Both the position numbers and the translations under genes were made by a program. From assembly GCA_963766885.1 (NCBI GenBank), contig CAVYBO010000002.1, positions 86,097-150,096 on the forward strand: a stretch of DNA of 64,000 bases, read 5' to 3'. The notes below the pieces were generated by a model, which worked only from the letters and a program-made list of their open reading frames with translations, had not been told where the DNA came from and made no database searches. Shown here piece by piece: positions 1-55,226 of the stretch; positions within the stretch are counted from its first letter, which is position 1; every line of letters starts with the position of its first letter. This DNA is from an uncultured bacterium (GTDB taxonomy: Bacteria; Patescibacteriota; Minisyncoccia; Phycocordibacterales; CAIRYW01).

Positions 1-507
1 CTAAAGTTGCTTTACAGCTTCTTCTAGAAAAGTTTTATCACGAGCAACAATAAATGGCCCGTTATAATCCCTTGGAATATTTTTTGAAACCAATTCTATT
101 GCTTCTGATATTGGAACCCAAATTGGTGCTATAAAACCTTCATCAATTTCATGTTTGGTAAAATCTGTTTTACCTTTTTCTCCTATCACTTTTGCAATAA
201 AACAATAAGAAGTTTGTTTTAGAGAAGATTGATTCGCTCTGAATTCAAGAATTTCACCAAGTTCTTTTATTATTTCAATTTCACAACCGATTTCTTCCAT
301 ACATTCTCTTTTTGTTGCATCAATAATTTCTTCGCCATCTTCAATGCCTCCACCTGGAAGCTTATAATAATTATGTTTCGTTACTGGAAGCAAAGCCACT
401 AAATTATTTTCATCAAATACCACAGCTCTTGCAGCCCGCCTAACCCTAAAATTGGAGGCTTCTTTTTCTGTAACATTTTCCGGGTTTATTGTTGCTAGAT
501 GTTTCAT
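1..507 (-). CDS. NUDIX hydrolase
   Basis: The 168-aa ORF carries a NUDIX box G-x5-E-x7-REcxEExGc (GGIEDGEEIIDATKRECMEEIGC). The stop codon is the first 3 nt of the window. Confidence 0.8.
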   Translation of the reverse strand: MKHLATINPENVTEKEASNFRVRRAARAVVFDENNLVALLPVTKHNYYKLPGGGIEDGEEIIDATKRECMEEIGCEIEIIKELGEILEFRANQSSLKQTSYCFIAKVIGEKGKTDFTKHEIDEGFIAPIWVPISEAIELVSKNIPRDYNGPFIVARDKTFLEEAVKQL

Positions 508-1983: not shown

Positions 1984-3774
1984 TTACTCCAACACCGCTT
2001 TTATTCTTCTAACTCCTTCGCTTACAGCTTCTTCTTTTTGTATTTTGAAGGTGCCTTTGAGTTCGGAAGTGTTTTTGACATGTGGGCCGCCGCAGAATTC
2101 TTTGGAAAAAGCGTGTTCCAAATCATTGCCAATATAATACACATTTACTCTATCTCCATATTTGTCTCCAAAAAAGTGCAACGCGCCGGTTTTTTCAGCT
2201 TCATCCTTTGGCAGATTGATTAAATTCACAGGCAAAGCCTCGAAGATTTTTTCATTTACGATTTCTTCGACCTTTTTTCTTTCCACATCTGTCATTTTCT
2301 TTGGATGAGTAAAGTCAAAGCGGAGGCGCTCTGGTGTGATGTTACTTCCCTTTTGTGACACGTGATTTCCCAAAACTTCTCGCAGTGCTTGATGAAGCAA
2401 ATGTGTGGCTGTGTGATATTGAATTGTTTTTTCGTCTGTTCCGCCAAGTCCGCCTTTAAACTTTTTCTCTGCGCCAGCGCGAGAAAGTTCTTGATGTTTT
2501 TTAAATTCTTCTTCAAATTGCTTGTCATCAATTGCAATCCCCTTTTCCTTTGCTAATTCTTTTGTCAATTCAAACGGAAATCCGTATGTAGAAAAAAGCA
2601 CAAATGCTTCCTTACCAGAAATTCCGTCAGAATATATTTTTTCAAATTGTTTTATCCCATCTTTCAAAGTTTTTCTAAACTTCTGCTCTTCTTTATCAAT
2701 TTCTGTTTTGATTGTTTCTTTTTTTTGTCCAAGTTCGGGATAAACATTTTTATATTTTTCAATCACACTATCCGCAATCCAAAAAAGCGAGCTACGCTTC
2801 ATTCCCAATTTGTCTGCGTGCAGGACTGCCCTTCGCAAAAGCCGCCGCAACACATATCCTTGATCGGTGTTTGATGGCGCCACGCCGTCGCCGATCAAAA
2901 AAACCGCGCTGCGAATATGGTCTGCAATTATCCTTTTGGATCTGCCAAGTTCTCCGTCTGCTGTGGAAAATTCATTTATTTTTTCAATAATAGGAACAAA
3001 TAAATCAGTATCAAAAACAGTTATCTTGCCCTGCACAACTGTCGCGACTCTTTCAAGGCCAGAGCCAGTGTCAACGTTTTGAGATCTTAGTTTACCGATT
3101 ATTTTGCCGTCTTTTTTCTCATATTCCATAAACACATCGTTCCAAATCTCGATTATTTCTCCCTTGTCATCCATTTTTACAAATTGTTTGGGCGTCAGGC
3201 CGTTTGTGTGCTTGCCGCTTGGGTCGTAAAACATTTCGCTGTCTGGGCCGCACGGGCCGTTATCTCCAGGACTCCACCAATTATTTTTGGCTGGCAAAAA
3301 GAAGATTCTTTCTCCCTTGATTTTGTTTCTATCAAAAATTTCCTGCCAGATTTTTGCAGACTCTGTATCGCGCGGAGCGTTATCGTCCCCTTCAAAACAA
3401 GTTATGTAGAGCCTGTTTGGATCCAAACCAAAACCTTCTTTCTTTGAAGTCAAAAGTTCAAAGCTCCAATTGATTGCGTCTTTTTTAAAATAATCTCCCA
3501 AAGACCAATTGCCAAGCATTTCAAAAAAAGTCAGGTGGCGATTGTCGCTGACTTCTTCAATATCATTTGTGCGAAGGCATTTTTGCACGTCCGCAAGCCT
3601 TTTGCCTTTGGGATGAGGCGTTCCAAGCAAATAGGGCACAAAAGGCTGCATGCCTGCGGTATTAAAAAGCACCGAAGGATCATTCTCTGGCACCAAAGGA
3701 GCGGAAGGAATAATTGCGTGCTCCCTTTTTTCAAAAAATTTTAGGAATCTCTGGCGGATTTCTTCGGAATTCAT
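1984..3774 (-). CDS. alaS: alanine--tRNA ligase, minimalist form (catalytic plus editing core, no C-Ala domain)
   Basis: The N-terminus MNSEEIRQRFLKFFEKREHAIIPSAPLVPENDPSVLFNTAGM is the class II AlaRS signature. The editing-domain zinc motifs HxxxH (TATHLLHQAL) and CGGPH are present. The ORF is only 596 aa. Confidence 0.85.
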   Translation of the reverse strand: MNSEEIRQRFLKFFEKREHAIIPSAPLVPENDPSVLFNTAGMQPFVPYLLGTPHPKGKRLADVQKCLRTNDIEEVSDNRHLTFFEMLGNWSLGDYFKKDAINWSFELLTSKKEGFGLDPNRLYITCFEGDDNAPRDTESAKIWQEIFDRNKIKGERIFFLPAKNNWWSPGDNGPCGPDSEMFYDPSGKHTNGLTPKQFVKMDDKGEIIEIWNDVFMEYEKKDGKIIGKLRSQNVDTGSGLERVATVVQGKITVFDTDLFVPIIEKINEFSTADGELGRSKRIIADHIRSAVFLIGDGVAPSNTDQGYVLRRLLRRAVLHADKLGMKRSSLFWIADSVIEKYKNVYPELGQKKETIKTEIDKEEQKFRKTLKDGIKQFEKIYSDGISGKEAFVLFSTYGFPFELTKELAKEKGIAIDDKQFEEEFKKHQELSRAGAEKKFKGGLGGTDEKTIQYHTATHLLHQALREVLGNHVSQKGSNITPERLRFDFTHPKKMTDVERKKVEEIVNEKIFEALPVNLINLPKDEAEKTGALHFFGDKYGDRVNVYYIGNDLEHAFSKEFCGGPHVKNTSELKGTFKIQKEEAVSEGVRRIKAVLE

Positions 3775-5491: not shown

Positions 5492-6558
5492 TCTATCACG
5501 CCGCCGCCGAGGCAGATATTTTTGTCGTAAATTACCACTGACTGCCCGGCGGCTGCTGTTTGTGGCTTTTGGAAAACCACACCAAATACATTGTTTTTTT
5601 GCTCAATTTTTACATTTTGCAGTTTTTGATGATAGCGAATCTGCGCCTGGTATTTTTTGTTTTGTTTCGGCATTTCGTTTATCCAATTTGTGTTTCCAAT
5701 CAAAACCCTTCTTGAAATTTTATCTGACTCTTCCTTTAAATCCGCTTTAATTCCCACAGTAATTGTGTTTTTGGAAATATCTTTGTTGATTATATAGAGC
5801 GGCTTGTCATGATCTGTCTTTGCGGTGATTACAAATCCATGCCGCTCGCCTATTGTATAAAAAACAGCGCCATCGTGATGTCCTATAACCCTTCCGAATT
5901 TGTCCAGAACATCTCCTTTGTTAATTTCTATATAATGCGACAAAAATTCCTTCATACTTATGTTGCCAATAAAGCAAATTCCCTGGCTATCTTTTTTTTC
6001 TGCGTTCGGCAAACCGATTTTTTTGGCAATTTTGCGCACTTCTCGCTTCTCCAAGTTTCCAACCGGAAAAATAATTTTAGAAAGCTCAAATTGGGTTAAA
6101 GTCCAAAGAAAATAACTCTGCTCTTTTTCCTCATCAAAGCTTTTAAGCAAATCAAACTTTCCGCCTTTTTCTTTTATCTGAGCGTAATGTCCTGTAGCGA
6201 CAAAATCCGCTCCCATAGAAATTGCTTTTTTGAGAAAAGCGCCAAACTTTATTTCCCTATTGCACATTACGTCTGGATTCGGAGTTCTGCCTGCTTTGTA
6301 TTCAGAAATCATATAATCCGCAACACTTTCCTTATATTCTTTTTCCAAATCAATTGTCACAAAAGGAATTTCCAAATGGGCTGCGGCGCGCATTGCATCG
6401 CGCCGCTCTTCCTTCCAAGTACACTCCATCCATTCAGGCTGCCAAGTCTTTATAAAAGCGCCAACAACATTAAATCTCTGCTTTTTTAGCAGATATGCAG
6501 ATACAGAGCTATCAACTCCGCCCGACAGGCCGACAAAAACTGTTTTATTTTTTATCAT
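5488..6558 (-). CDS. mnmA: tRNA-specific 2-thiouridylase MnmA
   Basis: The ORF has a PP-loop VFVGLSGGVDSSVSA and the conserved MnmA core FVATGHYAQ. Confidence 0.9.
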   Translation of the reverse strand: MIKNKTVFVGLSGGVDSSVSAYLLKKQRFNVVGAFIKTWQPEWMECTWKEERRDAMRAAAHLEIPFVTIDLEKEYKESVADYMISEYKAGRTPNPDVMCNREIKFGAFLKKAISMGADFVATGHYAQIKEKGGKFDLLKSFDEEKEQSYFLWTLTQFELSKIIFPVGNLEKREVRKIAKKIGLPNAEKKDSQGICFIGNISMKEFLSHYIEINKGDVLDKFGRVIGHHDGAVFYTIGERHGFVITAKTDHDKPLYIINKDISKNTITVGIKADLKEESDKISRRVLIGNTNWINEMPKQNKKYQAQIRYHQKLQNVKIEQKNNVFGVVFQKPQTAAAGQSVVIYDKNICLGGGVIE

Positions 6559-48180: not shown

Positions 48181-51117
48181 TTAATGGTTATTTATATATG
48201 CCCTAGTAATAGGTCCGAAGTATCCGGAAGCAGGAATGATACCTTTTGCGCTCTGGAAGGCGGCCAAAGCCATTTTGGTTAATTTGCCAAAATAATTTGT
48301 TTCGTTTCCTGGTGACCCTGGTCCAGTAACCACTATAGTAAAGCCATGAGAATTTAAATACTTCTGAAGGAACTTTACCTTCGAATTAGTCATACCGATT
48401 TTTAAATTTTCAGTAAATGTTGGATTGATAACCGGATTAATAAACAATGTATTAATTTGATTAACGTTTGCACTGCCGCAAGGTTTCCCTGTATCTGCAT
48501 TGAACAGCTGTCCTGAAAGACAAACAGGGATATTTACAATAAGATTTGAATTTGAAAGTGATGAGTTCCCTCCACTAGAAAAATCAAAAATAACCGGCGC
48601 GGTACTGACATTAACCGCAGCCTGCCTAGTCACATTTACTGTGTATGTATTTTGTGTCAAACCGTCTTGTGCGGTAACTACTACAGGGATTGTATTGGAG
48701 CCGACATTCAATGATATAGATCCCGACGATGTGCCGCTGGCAACCGAAACACCGTTTACTGTTGTGGTCGCATTAGCCTGATTTAATGTCGGAGTGATTG
48801 TTACACTCGTCACATTATTAGGAACACTGTCGGTATAAGAAGTAGTGGTTGATGAAAATGCAGGACTTAAAGTTCCGGAACTGATAATGAGATTACTCAA
48901 AGTGGCATCAGAACTTATTTCTGTTCCCTCTGTAATAGTGGGCTCAGAAGGCACAAACTGCCTGACTAACACATTGTCAAAATCAGTTGTCGAATAGGCC
49001 CCGAGCAAACTGACTGTCGTAGAAGCAAGATTGTTGCTTTCAGTATAGGTCTCTTGCCAATTGGCAGGCATAGCACTTCCTATATTCCATATTTTCATAT
49101 ATATGGTCGTCCCCGCCCTAGCTACCTGCATCCGATACATGGTTGAAGTCGCCCAAGAAAACGATATGGGACTGCTTCCCCAGGCAATTTCACTATTGAG
49201 AATATTAACACTTGACTGAGTAGTACTTCTAAAGGCTCCACAATATCCGCGAGCAGCGTTATTTCCCGTATCATAACTGTTAAGACAAATTCCCCCGACA
49301 TCATTGTCAACTGGTGATGTCGTATAATTATCTACTTTTATATCAGCCTGCATCAAAAGATTGTTTGAAAGTCCAACATTATATGTAAGTTTAGTGTCTT
49401 CTTCAGCGGTAGTGGTACTTTGATGCATTTGTCCAAGGTTTGCTGCCCACGTTCCCACAACCTTGGTCCAGCCCGGTTTGAAGCTAACAAAATCATCCCA
49501 GAACGGATACACGTTGCTGTAATCGGCAGTAGAAACAGATACTGTTGAAGTATTAAAAAGGGAAAGATTATTTGCGACAAAATTCAAGTCCCCCATTGGT
49601 GATTCAAGATTGTTGCTACTGCCATTTTGGGTGGTGCCGTAATATTCCATTGTTGGGTCAGCCCCCGCAACAAAATCGTTTACATACTGAATGGCCTTGC
49701 TCTGGTTGGTAAGCTGCATTGCCGCCGCAACCCAGGCATTGGCCACAGACCATCTACCATTATCGTATGTGCCCACAGGAAATGGCTGGGTATTGCTGTT
49801 GTCAGTGCCGTCAGAATCAATGTATCCATAATAAGCCCACGTGGTCGGACTCTGATGAATATATCCGTTGGCAGTGAGAGTGCTGTAATTATTTACCAGA
49901 TAATTACTAATAGCGGTTGCTTGAGGAGAAGTGGTAATACCGATATATACAGCGTAAGCTGAGCCTTCAACGTCAATCTGATTATCCTGTCCAGCGGCAG
50001 CATAAAACATGCCATCAGTGCTGTCCCAGAGTGTTGATATATTGTTTTTAATGCCATTAGCCTGATTTGCAAAATAAGTTGCATCTGTTGTATCACCTTC
50101 CGCCGTGTACATGACCACCATATCTTCGGCTGCTTGGTAATACAATAAGGATCCCATTAAATCGTCCCCAGTTTTACGAACATCATCTTGAAATCCCCAC
50201 GGAACCCATTGGTCGGTTGGAGAAATATATACCAATGTTGTAGTACCATCTCTTGGAATATTGGACAGAGCTGTCTTCAATGCAGCGGAGCTGGAAGTAA
50301 AAGCTGTGATGTCTCCAGATTTATCATAATAAAGCTTCTCCATCATTGGCACCATAAAGGCTCCGTCTCCGGTGGCATGAGTATGGCGGTGGTCATCTCC
50401 TGAGTAATATGCATCAGCGGTACCATTGGAGTTTAGATCAATAGGAAAATCTCCATTTCCATTTTTTACCGATATAAATTTTTGGAATGTGTTTTTGATC
50501 TGTGCAGCCGTAAAATAGGATGGGTCTCCCGAAAAAGCATACCAAGTATCTGCTGCGTATTCTGTATGATATCCTGCTGCAGCAGTCCAATAATCTGAAC
50601 CATCGCTACTAAAGGTTGTATGATTGCTTGAAAGATCTTCCTGCGTCGCAGAAAGAAGTGTGTCGTATTGCGTTTGTGCAGAAATATTCACAGTATGAGT
50701 ATCGTACGAAGGGACAGTAGCGCTTGGATTTCCATAATATAAGTAGTAATTGGTATCGGTAGCATTTGCCGAAATTGCAGCCTGAGTCTCAAACCAAATT
50801 TGGGTGCTTGTGCTATTCCAACTTGATGATACGTCAAGACCTCGATTAAGTTCCGCCCAAGAACTGCCGTTCCAATATGCAATTCTTATATCTGCCCCGT
50901 TAGTAAGCGATTTTCCTGCGGAAACCAAAGCAGCATGATTGAAGGTATATCCTACTGAATAGCCAGACGATAATGTCCCTGAGCTATTGTTCGTAACTGC
51001 AAGCTGTTTAGAATATTGGTAGCTAGAATTCCAAACTGATGAAGGTGCGGATGCAAAAGCATTGCTAGAGAAAAAAAGACCTAGAAAACAAAACAGTAAA
51101 AGAAAGATTTTTTTCAC
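48181..51117 (-). CDS. large secreted protein with cadherin-like beta-sandwich and C-terminal peptidoglycan-binding domain
   Basis: The 978-aa ORF has a signal peptide and a Ser/Thr-rich composition. It carries a cadherin-like segment (SSDATLSNLIISSGTLSPAF ... YTVNVTR) and a C-terminal PG_binding_1-like motif (VKFLQKYLNSHGF ... GYFGPITRAYI). Confidence 0.7.
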   Translation of the reverse strand: MKKIFLLLFCFLGLFFSSNAFASAPSSVWNSSYQYSKQLAVTNNSSGTLSSGYSVGYTFNHAALVSAGKSLTNGADIRIAYWNGSSWAELNRGLDVSSSWNSTSTQIWFETQAAISANATDTNYYLYYGNPSATVPSYDTHTVNISAQTQYDTLLSATQEDLSSNHTTFSSDGSDYWTAAAGYHTEYAADTWYAFSGDPSYFTAAQIKNTFQKFISVKNGNGDFPIDLNSNGTADAYYSGDDHRHTHATGDGAFMVPMMEKLYYDKSGDITAFTSSSAALKTALSNIPRDGTTTLVYISPTDQWVPWGFQDDVRKTGDDLMGSLLYYQAAEDMVVMYTAEGDTTDATYFANQANGIKNNISTLWDSTDGMFYAAAGQDNQIDVEGSAYAVYIGITTSPQATAISNYLVNNYSTLTANGYIHQSPTTWAYYGYIDSDGTDNSNTQPFPVGTYDNGRWSVANAWVAAAMQLTNQSKAIQYVNDFVAGADPTMEYYGTTQNGSSNNLESPMGDLNFVANNLSLFNTSTVSVSTADYSNVYPFWDDFVSFKPGWTKVVGTWAANLGQMHQSTTTAEEDTKLTYNVGLSNNLLMQADIKVDNYTTSPVDNDVGGICLNSYDTGNNAARGYCGAFRSTTQSSVNILNSEIAWGSSPISFSWATSTMYRMQVARAGTTIYMKIWNIGSAMPANWQETYTESNNLASTTVSLLGAYSTTDFDNVLVRQFVPSEPTITEGTEISSDATLSNLIISSGTLSPAFSSTTTSYTDSVPNNVTSVTITPTLNQANATTTVNGVSVASGTSSGSISLNVGSNTIPVVVTAQDGLTQNTYTVNVTRQAAVNVSTAPVIFDFSSGGNSSLSNSNLIVNIPVCLSGQLFNADTGKPCGSANVNQINTLFINPVINPTFTENLKIGMTNSKVKFLQKYLNSHGFTIVVTGPGSPGNETNYFGKLTKMALAAFQSAKGIIPASGYFGPITRAYINNH

Positions 51118-51253
51118 AGAAATTTATGTAATATTTTTAAAAAAATTAAGTCCTGTAAATATTACATTTTATAAGTCATATTTACAAGTATCTCTAAAAA
51201 ACCCATAAATAAAAGCCCTAAACTGCTTTTTGTAAGTTCAATATATCAGGTAG

Positions 51254-51282
51254 TTGACATAATTCCATTAAACTATCATAAT
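51254..51282 (+). promoter_or_regulatory. sigma-70-like promoter
   Basis: TTGACA, a 17-nt spacer and CATAAT. Confidence 0.35.
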
Positions 51283-51318
51283 TAAACAGTTATAACGTTC
51301 TTTGAAATTGGCTTCTTT

Positions 51319-51370
51319 TTGCCATAGCATAGAGCGTCTTTTTTAGTGAGGATGTTCTATGCTGTGGCAA
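51319..51370. repeat. 15-bp inverted repeat (14/15 match) with 22-nt loop in the 5' leader of the GC-elevated gene
   Basis: ttgccatagcataga ... tctatgctgtggcaa. Confidence 0.6.
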
Positions 51371-51444
51371 AGCCTTAAATTAGGCAGAGCCTGCTTCCTA
51401 AGCAATACACTACAAACCCAACCCATACCTAGAAAAAAAAGATA

Positions 51445-52149
51445 ATGCAACGTCAAAATCCGCAAGGAACTTTGGACAGGACTGATCAGTTTGCGCGAGG
51501 GTCTTCTGCTGATAAAATCGACGCATTAGTGGCAGAAATTAGGCGCAACTTCTCGGACGCTCAGATAGAGCGGCTAGCGACCGACCCAGATCTAATCCTG
51601 GGTATACGTGAGTGTATTGAACACCGCGGCAGCATCAAACTGATGACGCACTCAATCGATTGCGGCACATTAGTTTCTTGCAGTCCTGGCTGGGAAATAC
51701 CTCCGGAATACCAAATGCTGCCGGTACACTACTCTGGTGTTCTGGAGTGGAACAAAGAAGAACAGGTCGGGGCCATTCATGTCGTTAAGAGAAACGGCAA
51801 TGCGAACTATCTCGGCAAAAAAGCCCCGCTCGTTCAGGAGCTTTTCTGGAAAGGTACGTACCCGGCAAACGTCGGGCGCTATCTGGTAGAGAACCCAGTC
51901 CTCATCCCCAAAGAATGGTGTCGTTACCTCAAAGTATTCTTTTTTGGAACCATCTTTAGCACTAAACCGCCCTACACCAATTATAGCGGTCCAAGGGACC
52001 TCTACGTCATGTTCATTGAAAAACGTGGCGGCAAATGGCAGGCGGACTATCTCCTCCTAGACGAGACCCGATTAGGGCCAGAGATCGCCGTGGCGTGCCA
52101 CGATGGAAACCAAAAAGGAAACGAGAACGAGGTCGTGCTGAGTTCATAA
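51445..52149 (+). CDS. hypothetical protein, compositionally foreign (mid GC)
   Basis: The 234-aa ORF has noticeably higher GC and different codon usage than its neighbours and no recognisable motif. Confidence 0.5.
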   Translation: MQRQNPQGTLDRTDQFARGSSADKIDALVAEIRRNFSDAQIERLATDPDLILGIRECIEHRGSIKLMTHSIDCGTLVSCSPGWEIPPEYQMLPVHYSGVLEWNKEEQVGAIHVVKRNGNANYLGKKAPLVQELFWKGTYPANVGRYLVENPVLIPKEWCRYLKVFFFGTIFSTKPPYTNYSGPRDLYVMFIEKRGGKWQADYLLLDETRLGPEIAVACHDGNQKGNENEVVLSS

Positions 52150-52165
52150 CAACTGGAACAGTATC

Positions 52166-52200
52166 AGTCCCGCATTTACACTGCGGGACTAATTTTTTTA
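52166..52200 (+). terminator. rho-independent terminator
   Basis: agtcccgca-tttacac-tgcgggact is followed by aattttttta. Confidence 0.6.
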
Positions 52201-52222
52201 TTTAATTTATAACTATATAAAA

Positions 52223-53245
52223 TTAAAGACTGATCACAAACAATTCCAGAGAAAGCTCTGGAATAAATGATCTTTCAGCTTGCATCAGCGCCTGAAGAAG
52301 CTTTCTTAAAACTTCAATACTTAAATCAAGATCTTTAGAATCAGATGCGTTTTTAATAAATTTAATTCTGTCTTCTGAATATTTTTTTAGCAAGGATCCT
52401 TCCTGAAATTTAGATACTCTGATCAAAACAATTTCACGGATTTTTTCCAAAACCAGTCTGCCAAAAAGATTTATATTTATTTCGGCTTCTTCGATATCCT
52501 TCAAAATTTTCAAGGCTTCATCAATATTTTTTTTACCTACTGCCAAAATAAAATTTTCTATCAAAGATTCTCTTGGAGCTCCCAGAGCTTTTTCTGTGTC
52601 AGTTAATTTTATTGATTTGCCAGATATAAACCCGATTGTCTTTTGTAATGCGCCAAACGCGTCTCGAAAGGAACCTCCTGCAACCAGTGCAATCAACTCA
52701 GCGGCGTTTTCTTCAATATCAAATCCCTCTTTTTTGGAGACTTCGGAAACAACTTTAGAAATTATACAAGTGGTTGGTTTTTTGAATTCACAAATCTGGC
52801 AACGGGATTGGATTGTTTCTGGGATTTTTTCCAATTCTGTCGTGGCCATAATAAATAAAACATGCTTAGGAGGCTCTTCCAAAGTTTTAAGCAGCGCGTT
52901 CCACGCTTCACGTGTGAGCATATGAGCTTCGTCTATAATGTAAACCTTTTTCTTGGATGAAAATGGCATAGTCTCAATCGTTTCTCTAAGCGTGCGAATG
53001 TCATCAATTCCCCTGTTTGATGCTGCGTCTATTTCGTACAAATCATCGTCTGTAGTACCAAGTTCTTTGGCTAAAATTCTGGCAACAGAAGTTTTGCCCG
53101 TGCCGCGGGAACCGGCAAAAATGTATGCGTGTGAAAGCCTCTCTTCCGAAATAGAATTTTGAAGAAGTAAGACAGTCTGCTCTTGTCCGATTATTTCTTC
53201 AAAATTTTTGGGACGATATTTTCTATAAAGCGTTTCGTGATTCAT
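52223..53245 (-). CDS. dnaX: DNA polymerase III subunit gamma/tau, short form
   Basis: YRPKNFEEIIGQE ..., Walker A GSRGTGKTS and sensor motifs are present. The start is taken at MNHETLYRKYRP. Confidence 0.85.
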   Translation of the reverse strand: MNHETLYRKYRPKNFEEIIGQEQTVLLLQNSISEERLSHAYIFAGSRGTGKTSVARILAKELGTTDDDLYEIDAASNRGIDDIRTLRETIETMPFSSKKKVYIIDEAHMLTREAWNALLKTLEEPPKHVLFIMATTELEKIPETIQSRCQICEFKKPTTCIISKVVSEVSKKEGFDIEENAAELIALVAGGSFRDAFGALQKTIGFISGKSIKLTDTEKALGAPRESLIENFILAVGKKNIDEALKILKDIEEAEININLFGRLVLEKIREIVLIRVSKFQEGSLLKKYSEDRIKFIKNASDSKDLDLSIEVLRKLLQALMQAERSFIPELSLELFVISL

Positions 53246-53286
53246 AAAAAATATTATAGCAAAGAAAGAGAAAATAAATTTAATAT

Positions 53287-53326
53287 AAAAAGAAACCGAC
53301 CGCTTGCAAAGGTACAAGCGGTCGGT
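53287..53326 (-). terminator. GC-rich rho-independent terminator following the GC-rich gene
   Basis: A 12-bp stem accgaccgcttg / caagcggtcggt is followed on the minus strand by a U-run. Confidence 0.5.
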
Positions 53327-53438
53327 GATATGAGTTTGAGAATCGCCTGCCCTCAGGCCAGTCGGGTTTTACCCCTTCGGAGAATTTAATCTCCTTTTCA
53401 GATTCTCATTTCATACCTGCTTTTAACCCCATGAAGGG

Positions 53439-53945
53439 TTAACCTGCGGCGTAGTGGCCGCCGGTGGTCTTCGTGTAAATGCCGACGGCGCTCGTCCAGT
53501 GCGATTCATAATTGGCCGGCGCGGTGGTATTTTGCGAGGACGAGGCGTAGCCGTCGATGCAGATCGGCAATCTGAATTGCCAGATGCCGAAGGCATTGTT
53601 GTAGGTAAGCGTGGTCCCGGTGTTGGGCGGCGTCGTCGTCTTCACGAGCATGCGGTCGAAGTGGAACTTCGGCGCTTGGAGCCCGGATTCCGTCGGCGGT
53701 CGCGCGATGGCGCTTTCGAAGGCCTGACCAGTCTCGGAAGTCTGGATGATCCAGACCGCGGGGATGAACCCGCCGTGGTCGTAATAGCTAAACGCCGGCG
53801 GAATGCCGACGTCGGGCGCGGGCGGCGCCGAGGCCGTGATCACATTGGTCTCATTTTTGGTGCCGGCGCCGAGGCCGTGCCAGCAGTAATACGCGGTTGC
53901 AATGATGGCCAAGAAGGCCAAGCGTTTGTTTTTGAGGATTTTCAT
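53439..53945 (-). CDS. secreted hypothetical protein encoded in a high-GC island
   Basis: The roughly 168-aa ORF begins at MKILKNKRLAFLAIIATAYYCWHG (a signal peptide). It has a strongly G/C-ending codon third position, unlike the rest of the window. Confidence 0.55.
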   Translation of the reverse strand: MKILKNKRLAFLAIIATAYYCWHGLGAGTKNETNVITASAPPAPDVGIPPAFSYYDHGGFIPAVWIIQTSETGQAFESAIARPPTESGLQAPKFHFDRMLVKTTTPPNTGTTLTYNNAFGIWQFRLPICIDGYASSSQNTTAPANYESHWTSAVGIYTKTTGGHYAAG

Positions 53946-54152
53946 CCGTTTTTCCTTTCGTTTGTTTGTTGTTGTTTTTGACTCAACCAGTATCCGGAAC
54001 AATCAGTAACGTTGCTTTTTGCCACCTCCTGAGATGGTTATGGGCAGGTATGAAATTGTTAAAGACCACAAGTTTTATCGTGTCAAATATTAACTCTAAA
54101 TTAAAACTTGTCAAGTGTTTTTCAAAAGTTATCCACAATAGACTTCTTCTTT

Positions 54153-55226
54153 TCAGGTCGCTTTGCTCCCGAAAATAAAGTCGTCCGCAACTGCCTCTAC
54201 TTGGCTGGCATTGTCAGTTTCCATCAATTTTATCCGCAAATCTTTGGCTCCCTCGAATCCATCAACATAAGCTTTAAAATGTTTTTTCATAATTGCAAAA
54301 TTTTTGTAACCAGTAAGTTTTTCCTCAAAAATTTTTGTGTGTTCTACCATAACTTTTAGCTTTTGTTCCACAGGAATGTCTTTTGTCGAGTACGTGCGCC
54401 CGTCTGCTGACGGGCTTCTAGCGTCCGCCGCCAGTCGCGGCTTCCGATCCTCTCCAAAAGACATTCCTTCAAATAGCCACGGGTTGCCGAAAATTCCTCG
54501 GCCAATCATTACTCCATCACAGCCTGTTTCTTCTGCTCTTTTTATTCCCTCTTCAATATTTTTTACATCTCCATTACCAATAATTAAAGTGTCCACTTTC
54601 ATATCATTACGAATCTCAACAGCGCGCTTTATATAATTCCAATTTGCTAGAACTTTAGACATTTCTTTTCTGGTACGAGCATGGATAGTCAGAGCCGCAA
54701 TATTTTCTTCAAGCAGTGCTGGGATCCACTCTTCAATTTCTAATTTATTAAATCCGACCCTAGTCTTCACAGAAATTGGAATTTTATTTTCCACTCCCCG
54801 CTTTGCGGCTTGAATTATTTCTTTGGCAAGTTTTGGATTTTTAATCAAGGCCGCGCCTGCGCATTGCTTTTCAATCGTTTTGTCCGGACAGCCCATATTT
54901 ATATCGAGTCCGTCAAATCCCAAATCTAAAACTATTTTTGCAGCGCCTTCAATGTATTCTGGTCTGCCGCTAAAAATCTGCGCGACGATCGGACGCTCAA
55001 TTTCAGAATATTCCAGATCCTTAAGAAGTTTTTTCTTGCCTTCTTCATTTGCGCGGCAGAGACCGTCTGCAGAAACGAATTCGGTCCACATTACATTTGG
55101 CTTGCCATATTTGGCGATAATTTGACGGAACGCGGCGTCGGTAACATCCGCCATTGGAGCAAGCGCAAAAAAGGGCATGTCTCGCAACAAGCCGGGCTTG
55201 CGTAGATTTTTCCAAAAATTATTCAT
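54153..55226 (-). CDS. dus: tRNA-dihydrouridine synthase
   Basis: The ORF has a TIM-barrel Dus core (LAPMADVTD ..., catalytic INMGCP) and a C-terminal helical domain. Confidence 0.85.
   Translation of the reverse strand: MNNFWKNLRKPGLLRDMPFFALAPMADVTDAAFRQIIAKYGKPNVMWTEFVSADGLCRANEEGKKKLLKDLEYSEIERPIVAQIFSGRPEYIEGAAKIVLDLGFDGLDINMGCPDKTIEKQCAGAALIKNPKLAKEIIQAAKRGVENKIPISVKTRVGFNKLEIEEWIPALLEENIAALTIHARTRKEMSKVLANWNYIKRAVEIRNDMKVDTLIIGNGDVKNIEEGIKRAEETGCDGVMIGRGIFGNPWLFEGMSFGEDRKPRLAADARSPSADGRTYSTKDIPVEQKLKVMVEHTKIFEEKLTGYKNFAIMKKHFKAYVDGFEGAKDLRIKLMETDNASQVEAVADDFIFGSKAT

Follow-up and report, generated by a model that had tools for sequence, protein, structure and literature searches.

A predicted transcription unit with a conserved leader RNA and a probable orphan target gene of a diversity-generating retroelement in a Paceibacterota-like bacterium

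Introduction

A gene of 234 codons lies next to dnaX in the DNA stretch analysed here (64,000 nucleotides, hereafter the window), and a long inverted repeat is found in its 5' leader. What is this gene, and what could the repeat do? A sequence-only reading had taken the locus for a compositionally foreign, self-contained and regulated cassette, whose inverted repeat would be an operator or an attenuator/RNA switch and whose product had no recognisable motif. The answer that we develop here involves diversity-generating retroelements (DGRs), whose variable (target) proteins include Mtd of Bordetella phage BPP-1 and TvpA of Treponema denticola. DGR variable regions (VRs) with a C-type-lectin fold have been reviewed (PMC5758913, PMC8144416). 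According to the available sections of these papers, a DGR clade restricted to the CPR has targets without recognisable domains (PMC8144416), and the VRs of CPR DGRs are largely unclassified (PMC5758913). The targets of the CPR DGRs are numerous, functionally blank and described as having no recognisable feature.

Results

The host and the locus

The relatives of the dnaX gene come from Paceibacterota, Parcubacteria and Saccharibacteria MAGs, and the gene order clpB-like/PBP/dus/dnaX is conserved. Judged from its sequence, the host belongs to the CPR and is Paceibacterota-like. In three relatives (L002-L004), the syntenic dnaX loci lack any homologue of the gene or its leader. Since gene order is not conserved there on the downstream side of dnaX, no clean empty site can be defined.

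A complete transcription unit is predicted

The features of the locus, all on the + strand of the window, are the following:

51254-51282, +, predicted sigma-70-type promoter: -35 TTGACA (51254-51259), 17-nt spacer, -10 CATAAT (51277-51282)
51295-51401, +, conserved 5'-leader RNA motif of the family, from a full-length match to covariance model R1
51297-51305, +, GTTCTTTGA box at the predicted 5' end of the transcript; family consensus AGTTCTTTGA (alignment and cmsearch alignment)
51318-51371, +, hairpin P1, which is the inverted repeat, about 24 bp as RNA (fold and covariation)
51372-51385, +, small hairpin P2, GCCT-taaatt-AGGC (fold; position from alignments)
51387-51395, +, GAGCCTGCT box; family consensus GAGCCCGCTGGCA, 3' half diverged in the window (alignment, cmsearch)
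51402-51444, +, A-rich stretch without a Shine-Dalgarno sequence, up to the start codon (sequence and stem count)
51445-52149, +, 234-aa gene, divergent and apparently orphan member of a Parcubacteria DGR variable-protein family (homology)
51990-52110, +, approximate VR equivalent, about residues 183-222 (inferred from the protein alignment)
52166-52200, +, intrinsic terminator AGTCCCGCA-tttacac-TGCGGGACT, then a T-run; stem-loop at 52166-52190

The promoter matches 11 of the 12 consensus positions; note that such matches were found at 4 sites against 3.4 expected, so the consensus alone is weak evidence. Its position is conserved: in 32 of 37 sources (the window and 36 related loci), a promoter of the form TTGACN-16..18-xAxxxT occupies this place, and the gap between promoter and leader motif has a median of 9 nt across the sources and is 12 nt in the window. 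At the other end, the stem-loop has the properties of an intrinsic terminator, with a 9-bp stem containing 6 G-C pairs and a 7-nt loop, followed by AATTTTTTT. A strong hairpin with a T-run is also present downstream of the stop codon in the homologues. The near-consensus promoter, the 9-bp-stem terminator and the self-contained layout claimed in the sequence-only reading were all recovered, with promoter, leader, ORF and terminator each in place. Taken together, positions 51254-52200 are predicted to form one complete transcription unit, consisting of a strong sigma-70-type promoter, a 150-nt structured 5' leader, the ORF and the terminator.

The deviant composition travels with the gene family

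ORF 51445-52149 starts with ATG, shows the GC1>GC2 pattern of coding DNA and has no ORF of at least 50 aa on the opposite strand; it is directly followed by the convergent dnaX. Its GC content is 0.505 and its GC3 is 0.56, compared to a GC3 of 0.17-0.42 in the other 53 ORFs of the window. Moreover, its CAI-like index, computed with the genes of the window as reference, is 0.552, against a mean of 0.703 (sd 0.027) for the window genes, that is, a z-score of -5.5. Higher GC and non-native codon usage had been the grounds for calling the gene foreign, and both deviations are real. The foreign origin does not follow from the GC, however. The GC content of the family gene exceeds that of the flanking DNA in 35 of 38 loci, with a mean excess of 9.9 points, and raised GC is therefore a family-wide trait that by itself is no proof of recent transfer. 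Because odd codon usage and raised GC travel with the gene in this family, compositional foreignness is an unreliable clock for horizontal transfer. The high-GC island on the other side of dnaX (53439-54002), to which the sequence-only reading ascribed a different origin, had no similarity to any fetched sequence.

The gene belongs to a large CPR protein family

The 234-aa protein had no meaningful match in Pfam, NCBIfam, PADLOC, PHROGs or the PDB sequences, and no sequence match to the C-type-lectin, FGE-sulfatase and DUF1566 models. A word-indexed search with this single protein recovered just itself, a result that would wrongly imply an ORFan; a full HMMER scan was thus needed, and it gave 58 homologues at E<=1e-3. 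The protein is about 25-30% identical to the other family members, is the sole sequence in its 90% cluster, and matches the family consensus with 36% identity over 201 aa (E 6e-28). A profile search extended the family to more than 2,223 members, all labelled hypothetical and without a Pfam domain, whose names come from Parcubacteria MAGs only (Kaiser-, Taylor-, Yanofsky-, Moran- and Nomurabacteria and Paceibacteria among them). The family is also found in at least 491 metagenome loci, in a scan with closer sequences as query, and many of the loci listed come from groundwater (Hainich) assemblies; five IMG/VR contigs carry it as well. The absence of a recognisable motif noted from the sequence is therefore true of the curated libraries but not of the HMMER and profile searches, which place the protein in a large CPR family of DGR variable proteins.

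The core motifs of the family, ANV..YL, LIP.EW and FF.GT, are kept in the 234-aa protein in the alignment. AlphaFold2 gave a confident model when supplied with the family alignment (pLDDT 81.5, pTM 0.74), compared to a pLDDT of 34.7 for the single sequence. The best Foldseek matches of the model were C-type lectins, at non-significant values (E>0.5, TM scores 0.2-0.34), and the family profile had one match in the PDB, at E 1.5. Structure prediction, which had been proposed as a check, thus delivered a confident model but no significant fold match. The family carries an N-terminal three-helix module, and by eye neither a signal peptide nor a TM-like segment is visible in the 234-aa protein.

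The homologues are predicted targets of diversity-generating retroelements

In the related loci, template (TR) copies of about 120 nt were found about 330 nt downstream of the family gene. The mismatches between TR and VR fall on adenines of the TR in 442 of 502 cases, and without exception in some loci (16/16 in L037, 20/20 in L059 and 21/21 in L056). RVT_1 genes follow the TR, giving the layout of a target gene with a C-terminal VR, then the TR, then the RT. For 33 family genes, 1.5 kb or more of downstream sequence is available; an RT lies nearby in 14 of them and a TR is present in 16. On this evidence the family is the variable (target) protein of a compact DGR in about one half of those loci whose sequence reaches far enough downstream, and the 234-aa protein is homologous to proteins with a TR-paired C-terminal VR.

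The copy in the window differs from these homologues. Its VR equivalent has lost several scaffold residues and has 9-10 inserted residues, and its C-terminus is extended. No repeat of the 3' region of the ORF was detected in the 64-kb window by blastn, a tblastn search of the window with the RTs of L037 and L059 gave nothing below E = 1, and the canonical TRs of the family had no nucleotide match to the VR-equivalent stretch. Since TR and RT are absent from the window and the VR scaffold has decayed, we consider this copy an orphan. The gene is most likely a fixed, no longer diversified but still expressed paralogue.

Two other readings have to be weighed here. The gene could be an active remote target, its C-terminal region being diversified by a TR-RT pair located elsewhere in the genome of about 596 kb, of which the search for TR and RT covered 64 kb. 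Non-adjacent or remote targets are documented for other DGRs in the available sections of PMC5758913, and neither a TR nor an RT adjoins about half of the family genes whose downstream sequence is long enough. We regard this as distinctly unlikely: not just are TR and RT missing from the window, but the VR equivalent has also lost scaffold residues and gained an insertion, and it is not matched by the canonical TRs. Alternatively, the unit could be a non-functional, decaying remnant, a pseudogenising target left behind after the loss of its DGR. The disappearance of TR and RT, the degenerated VR scaffold, the missing 3' half of the leader (see below) and a codon usage unadapted to the host all fit this idea. 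We nevertheless find it unlikely, because the DNA, at 50% GC, carries an intact frame of 234 codons, the near-consensus promoter, P1, P2 and the terminator have all been kept, the core motifs persist in a protein that is modelled with good confidence, and the region before the start codon resembles that of the host genes. The reading that we prefer, and hold to be probable, is that of a transcription unit with a divergent orphan gene of a DGR-target family and a conserved leader RNA containing P1.

The inverted repeat is part of a conserved leader RNA

A 15-bp inverted repeat with a 22-nt loop had been noticed in the leader. It is there, 1-2 nt away from the coordinates implied earlier, with arms at 51319-51333 and 51356-51370, one T/G position and 22 nt in between, and it can be extended to arms of 21 nt (51318-51338 and 51351-51371). 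Among the local inverted repeats of the 64-kb window it is the strongest, and the window contains no other copy of the 15-mer arm. When the leader was folded as RNA, the 24-bp hairpin P1 formed, the z-score was -6.0 and none of 200 shuffles folded as well. Across the homologues, 96.1% of the P1 cells are paired and 12 of 20 pairs show compensatory changes (17 of 21 in a second alignment). None of 500 shuffles was as good, and slid controls were 35-50% paired. Compared to the consensus, P1 of the window has one G-C to U-A swap and one U-G wobble. Thus, the structure expected for the leader was obtained, and covariation and controls argue against a coincidental palindrome. P1 pairs include 69 G-U against 11 A-C, which favours RNA of the sense strand, and P1 is predicted to form there.

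Covariance model R1, built without the window sequence, matched the window over its full length (model positions 1-105) at 51295-51401 on the + strand, with 54.5 bits and an E-value of 5.5e-12, against 24.4 bits on the - strand. Over 459 kb of related loci, every + strand match of R1 lies directly upstream of a family gene. The motif is about 105 nt long, begins at the predicted transcription start (about 51289-51296 in the window) and precedes most of the fetched family genes; it occurs with or without an adjacent retroelement, as family genes lacking TR and RT have it too. Its elements are, in order, the GUUCUUUGA box, P1, P2 and the GAGCCCGCUGGCA box (GAGCCYGCU). At the P2 site, the homologues have a short stem of variable sequence, its position being read from the alignments.

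The canonical leaders continue, at the site of 51402-51444, with P3 (a hairpin), the Shine-Dalgarno sequence AAGGAG and a further hairpin that encloses the start codon. None of the three is present in the window, where this stretch is A-rich and unstructured. The best stem around the start codon has 1 bp in the window, and stems of at least 5 bp occur in 43% of the homologues compared to 9% of the shuffles. By a crude count, 6 of the 53 host genes in the window have a Shine-Dalgarno sequence. The window copy thus appears to retain the 5' half of the leader only, the 3' half being replaced by a host-like A-rich region.

Rfam 15, at gathering and E-value thresholds, reported only tRNAs in the window, with no riboswitch, no RT-1 to RT-19 motif and no leader. 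There was no credible match in 51000-54300 and none in the leaders of 16 related loci. Locus L059 gave only spurious miRNA-hairpin matches. The leader is apparently an uncatalogued conserved RNA. A pseudoknot between the inner stem of P1 and the GAGCCCGCU box was considered and dropped, as no covariation was visible by inspection. A likeness to 5S rRNA, seen by eye, was superficial and had no Rfam support. Retrons, type III toxin-antitoxin systems, IS200/IS605 or TnpB omega-RNAs, IS110 bridge RNAs and integron attC sites were rejected because the locus has no RT, no tandem repeats and no HUH, RuvC or DEDD protein, and because the hairpin lies 5' of the gene, not 3'.

What the leader could do

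Two roles had been suggested for the repeat, operator or attenuator/switch. The wider idea of a structural or regulatory role within the leader is supported, at the level of structure, by covariation and by the R1 match. In favour of an operator, a site in double-stranded DNA for a dimeric repressor and no RNA element, are the location of the repeat just downstream of the promoter and the conservation of both P1 arms not just in their pairing but also in their sequence. Yet an operator would call for fixed half-site spacing and strand-symmetric conservation, and the repeat has neither: the spacing of the conserved arms varies among the loci, the inner stem covaries, and both the excess of G-U over A-C pairs and the R1 scores of the two strands are asymmetric. 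In addition, counted from the predicted start, the repeat begins at about +28, clear of the -35/-10 region. We therefore judge an operator extremely unlikely. What speaks for a ligand-sensing riboswitch or a classical transcription attenuator is that the 5' UTR is conserved and has several stems, that its unpaired boxes are conserved too, and that the canonical Shine-Dalgarno sequence and start codon adjoin hairpins or sit inside them. However, conservation peaks inside the P1 stem and not in the junctions, inspection revealed no alternative pairing that covaries, an expression platform is entirely absent from the window copy, and the gene context suggests no ligand. Moreover, P1 is followed by AGCCUUAAAUUAGGC, and since there is no U-tract behind the hairpin it is not a classical attenuator. 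This makes a riboswitch or attenuator quite improbable.

The leader would instead act in cis, after transcription. It might be a sequence-specific site for protein binding or processing, or a stabiliser of the 5' end. In the canonical leaders, P3, the Shine-Dalgarno sequence and the hairpin enclosing the start codon would act on translation, and their layout suggests translational control. It is possible, although we put it forward tentatively, that the full leader, including the canonical P3, Shine-Dalgarno and start-codon hairpins, represents an uncatalogued class of cis-regulatory RNA dedicated to the variable-protein genes of CPR DGRs, perhaps bound by the DGR RT, an accessory factor or the variable protein and so coupling expression to the state of the retroelement. 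As the window copy has no Shine-Dalgarno sequence and none of the leader parts near the start codon, the role of the full leader may not apply to it.

Discussion

With this assignment, an unannotated gene without a Pfam domain gains a concrete evolutionary identity, and a strongly covarying, promoter-anchored leader RNA is revealed upstream of most fetched family genes. No regulatory layer of this kind is described for DGR targets in the available parts of the DGR literature cited here. If the leader is regulatory, it would offer a route to study how the expression of hypervariable binding proteins is controlled in minimal genomes, and with it as a marker one could find those orphaned or remote DGR targets that are missed by searches for TR/VR repeats.

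As occurs with the DGR variable proteins, in the homologues of the window protein a C-terminal region of about 120 nt has its template repeat downstream, the differences between the two fall almost exclusively on template adenines, and an RT follows; unlike the DGR variable proteins, the window copy has no TR or RT, and its match to the C-type-lectin fold is non-significant. The closest parallels are the CPR DGRs, namely clade 2 of Roux et al. 2021 (PMC8144416) and the 'CPR set' with unclassified VRs UVR1-6 of Wu et al. 2018 (PMC5758913). From the sections of these papers that were available, they share with our family the host group (Parcubacteria/Patescibacteria), often in groundwater, the compact single-target cassette (target, TR, RT) and a target without a recognisable domain. 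In contrast, those sections mention no conserved leader upstream of the target, and we have not matched the family to any UVR class or protein cluster that they name.

RNA elements known from DGRs are the TR-spacer RNA and the Rfam RT-10 motif between TR and RT (PMC5737381), and a hairpin/cruciform downstream of the VR is a known DGR element according to the available text of PMC3240598. Like these, as far as those sources describe them, the leader is a structured nucleic acid dedicated to the DGR cassette; unlike these, which lie beside the TR or after the VR, it is located at the 5' end of the mRNA, upstream of the target. The Rfam RT-motif families had no match to the related loci, a further difference from the known DGR RNA elements.

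Outside the DGRs, stem-loops in the 5' UTR can stabilise the mRNA, as does the ompA 5' hairpin, or form autoregulatory sites that bind RNase III or other proteins, as in the rnc and pnp leaders. Domain DIVa of group II introns is bound by the intron's own RT. P1, a hairpin of about 22-24 bp near the 5' end of the mRNA, resembles the ompA, rnc and pnp leaders, but the leader motif is specific to one CPR protein family and has additional conserved boxes. The sequence conservation of P1 suggests that it may be recognised by a protein.

The window gene is a complete, compositionally deviant transcription unit

The 234-aa window protein is encoded by the sole long frame of its region, with both strands considered. 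Its gene, leader, promoter and terminator form a complete transcription unit, bearing out the self-contained cassette proposed by the sequence-only reading. The elements of this unit, and a second high-GC island nearby, are:

51254-51282 (+), promoter TTGACA-17-CATAAT, a near-consensus sequence match
51319-51333 and 51356-51370 (+), arms of the leader inverted repeat, extendable to 21 nt each
51445-52149 (+), ORF
52166-52190 (+), terminator, from the sequence
53439-54002 (-), second high-GC island, between dus and dnaX; GC 0.58, GC3 0.77, z = -7.7

The inverted repeat ranks first among the local inverted repeats of the entire 64-kb window. The gene has a GC of 0.505 and a GC3 of 0.56, compared to 0.17-0.42 in the other 53 window ORFs, and its codon usage deviates as well (z = -5.5 on a CAI-like index that takes the window's genes as reference), so the unusual composition first noticed was real. 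Note that GC1 (0.57) exceeds GC2 (0.39), the pattern expected of coding DNA. The upstream neighbour, on the minus strand, encodes 978 aa with cadherin-like and peptidoglycan-binding domains; downstream, a gap of just 73 nt lies between the stop codon and the convergent dnaX, after which come dus, a D-Ala-D-Ala carboxypeptidase gene and a ClpB-like ATPase gene.

The window protein belongs to a large family of hypothetical CPR proteins

The ORF had been described as lacking any recognisable motif. This held for the curated libraries and PDB sequences, which gave no match, and a word-indexed search returned only the protein itself. It did not hold once 1.84 billion representatives were scanned with filter-only HMMER: this yielded 58 relatives at E<=1e-3, mostly of 150-200 aa, which share the motifs HxIDCDAxPFxPxGW, ANVLDYLL, LIPEEWK and VFFWGTIYR, with PAAVxAS at the end of a Trp-rich C-terminus. 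The relatives are encoded at no fewer than 491 metagenome loci, many among those listed being in groundwater (Hainich) assemblies, and on 5 IMG/VR contigs. A profile of central members retrieved more than 2,223 proteins, all hypothetical and none with a Pfam domain; the named sources are Kaiser-, Taylor-, Yanofsky-, Moran- and Nomurabacteria, or Paceibacteria. The family consensus is 36% identical to the window protein over 201 aa (E 6e-28). AlphaFold2 with the family alignment gave a model of pLDDT 81.5 and pTM 0.74, whose top Foldseek matches, none significant, were C-type lectins, the fold expected of targets of diversity-generating retroelements (DGRs) and here taken as unproven.

Some contigs carry several family genes: three in tandem on an IMG/VR contig (L018, 279-2009), two (2995-3573 and 5552-6169) flanking one reverse transcriptase (RT) gene in L093, and two or three in others, L069 among them. 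The HMMER scan also gave repeated partial domain matches in very large proteins, of as many as 5,384 aa (protein P0007).

The family is a DGR-target family and the window gene an orphaned member

In many loci a second, short match, restricted to the last 40 profile positions, lies about 330 nt 3' of the gene. At the nucleotide level it is a copy, about 120 nt long, of the 3' end of the gene, and nearly all mismatches fall at the copy's own adenines (16/16 in L037, 20/20 in L059 and 21/21 in L056, three related loci; 442 of 502 when all template repeat (TR)/variable region (VR) mismatches are pooled). Beyond the copy lies a gene for an RVT_1 reverse transcriptase. This order, target(VR)-TR-RT, is the DGR signature, establishing the family as a DGR-target family. 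In agreement with this, Roux et al. (PMC8144416) describe a CPR-restricted DGR clade whose targets have no recognisable domains, and Wu et al. (PMC5758913) leave most CPR variable regions unclassified. Downstream sequence of 1.5 kb or more was available for 33 distinct family genes, of which 16 had a TR nearby and 14 an RT; thus, about half of the family has no retroelement next to it.

The window gene belongs to that half, since no RT and no TR-like repeat occurs in the 64-kb window. In the alignment its protein retains the family core motifs. F replaces the near-invariant W of FFWGT, the VR scaffold has lost several of its Trp and Arg residues, and the VR is preceded by a 9-10-residue insertion and followed by a tail of about 15 residues. 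Within the 64 kb, therefore, the window gene is a new and orphaned member of an already known group, the CPR DGR variable proteins.

Directly past the VR and stop codon (within 0-60 nt), family loci carry 50-60 nt of CTTNG-type repeats (CCTTGG, CTTTGA, CTTAGG; for example L024 873-940 and L040 2169-2225), which fold as a long, G-U-rich hairpin; a strong terminator, distinct from it, comes next. The G-U-rich hairpin, absent at the window copy, may correspond in this family to the post-VR hairpin for DGR target recognition.

The leader contains a conserved sense-strand RNA helix

The upstream regions of the family genes share a common plan, opening with a TTGACA/TATAAT promoter. There follow AGTTCTTTGA..ACTTGC, a long hairpin (TTTGCCATAGCAGAAAG..loop..CTCTGCTATGGCAAA), a short hairpin of variable sequence and GAGCCCGCTGGCA. 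The 3' half, present in most loci, adds the hairpin GCGAC-nnn-GTTC..GAAC-nnn-GTCGC, then AAGGAG as the Shine-Dalgarno, then a small hairpin whose loop contains the start codon. The window can be aligned base by base to the 5' half and has an A-rich stretch without a Shine-Dalgarno in place of the 3' half. In 32 of 37 sources (the window, where the gap is 12 nt, and 36 related loci), a promoter of the same type lies a median of 9 nt 5' of the motif; the motif therefore begins at about the predicted mRNA 5' end.

The inverted repeat forms P1, a conserved hairpin helix in the sense-strand RNA, whose distance from the promoter is fixed. In support of this, the leader folds far better than shuffles (z = -6.0), and RNAalifold found compensatory changes in 12 of 20 P1 pairs with 22 sequences and in 17 of 21 with 28. 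In an explicit count 96.1% of cells were paired, 0 of 500 shuffles equalled any of five measures, and sliding the partner by 1-3 columns reduced pairing to 35-50%. G-U pairs outnumber A-C pairs 69 to 11, indicating that the sense strand forms the helix. A covariance model built from 20 loci, with the window left out, had its sole strong window match at 51295-51401 (+) (54.5 bits, E 5.5e-12; 24.4 bits for the same hairpin on the reverse strand). Across 94 loci (459 kb) all plus-strand matches were immediately 5' of family genes, and six dnaX-synteny loci gave none. Rfam 15, RT-associated motifs included, holds nothing like it (PMC5737381). The leader motif is thus a well-supported RNA element, outside Rfam 15 and undescribed in the DGR papers cited here: the unit is ordinary as a gene, yet it bears a concrete, testable new RNA element.

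How might the leader act? The inverted repeat had been read as either an operator or an attenuator/RNA switch. The variable spacing of its arms and the strand asymmetry argue against a DNA operator, and no U-tract follows P1, so it is not a classical attenuator. We infer a cis action of the leader on the mRNA. Since P1, of about 22-24 bp, is conserved in sequence as well as in pairing, a site of protein recognition or processing, or an element that stabilises the 5' end, would be favoured over a metabolite sensor. In canonical members, which have the full leader, the third hairpin (P3), Shine-Dalgarno and start-codon hairpin suggest translational control; a stem of at least 5 bp surrounds the start codon in 43% of leaders, compared to 9% of shuffles. 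The A-rich start region of the window gene is consistent with, though no proof of, adaptation to a host whose genes, on a crude count, mostly lack a Shine-Dalgarno.

Between about -60 and +15 of the start codon, the outer stems of the GCGAC/GUCGC hairpin covary in L033, L038, L059, L024 and other related loci. The canonical start hairpin has 5-6 bp, pairing nt -6..-1 with codons 2-3 around the AUG loop (GUAGAC/GUCUAC, GUGGAC/GUCCAC, GUUGAC/GUCAAC).

Host, foreignness and mobility

The nearest dnaX relatives are from MAGs labelled Paceibacterota, Parcubacteria group or Saccharibacteria, which retain the clpB-like/PBP/dus/dnaX order; the window host is therefore a CPR bacterium, of about 38% GC. 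Neither the window gene nor its leader was found in the relatives' syntenic dnaX loci. By a crude count, a Shine-Dalgarno-like 4-mer occurs at -20..-4 in 6 of the 53 window genes. Many start regions among the window's 53 predicted genes are merely A/T-rich. Strong AAGGAG sites precede family homologues in other CPR genomes.

The label "foreign" stands only in part: the composition is truly deviant, but the offset belongs to the family. Family genes are GC-richer than their flanks in 35 of 38 loci (mean +9.9 points), irrespective of host GC, and reach a GC3 of 0.87 across host GC of 0.31 to 0.63; the offset travels with the gene. Mobility is plausible, since recombinase, ArdC, ParB, integrase-fragment or tRNA genes adjoin some homologues and viral contigs carry a few others; a recent transfer into this genome is at most a possibility. 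One locus (L011, 1-12585), with a distant family member but no TR or RT, looks like an integrative mobile element, with serine recombinase, ArdC-like, ParB-like and Tle1-like/LysM genes.

The island at 53439-54002 (-) is more extreme than the window gene (GC3 0.77 vs 0.56, z -7.7 vs -5.5), and had no Pfam match and no similarity to any fetched locus. It occupies the counterpart of the dus-dnaX gap, which in related MAGs holds GC-rich, hairpin-rich non-coding DNA (syntenic loci L002, 7988-8707, and L003, 9633-10000) that may be an unrecognised structured RNA. From an internal ATG, the island protein begins MKILKNKRLAFLAIIATAYYCWHG, which looks like a signal peptide.
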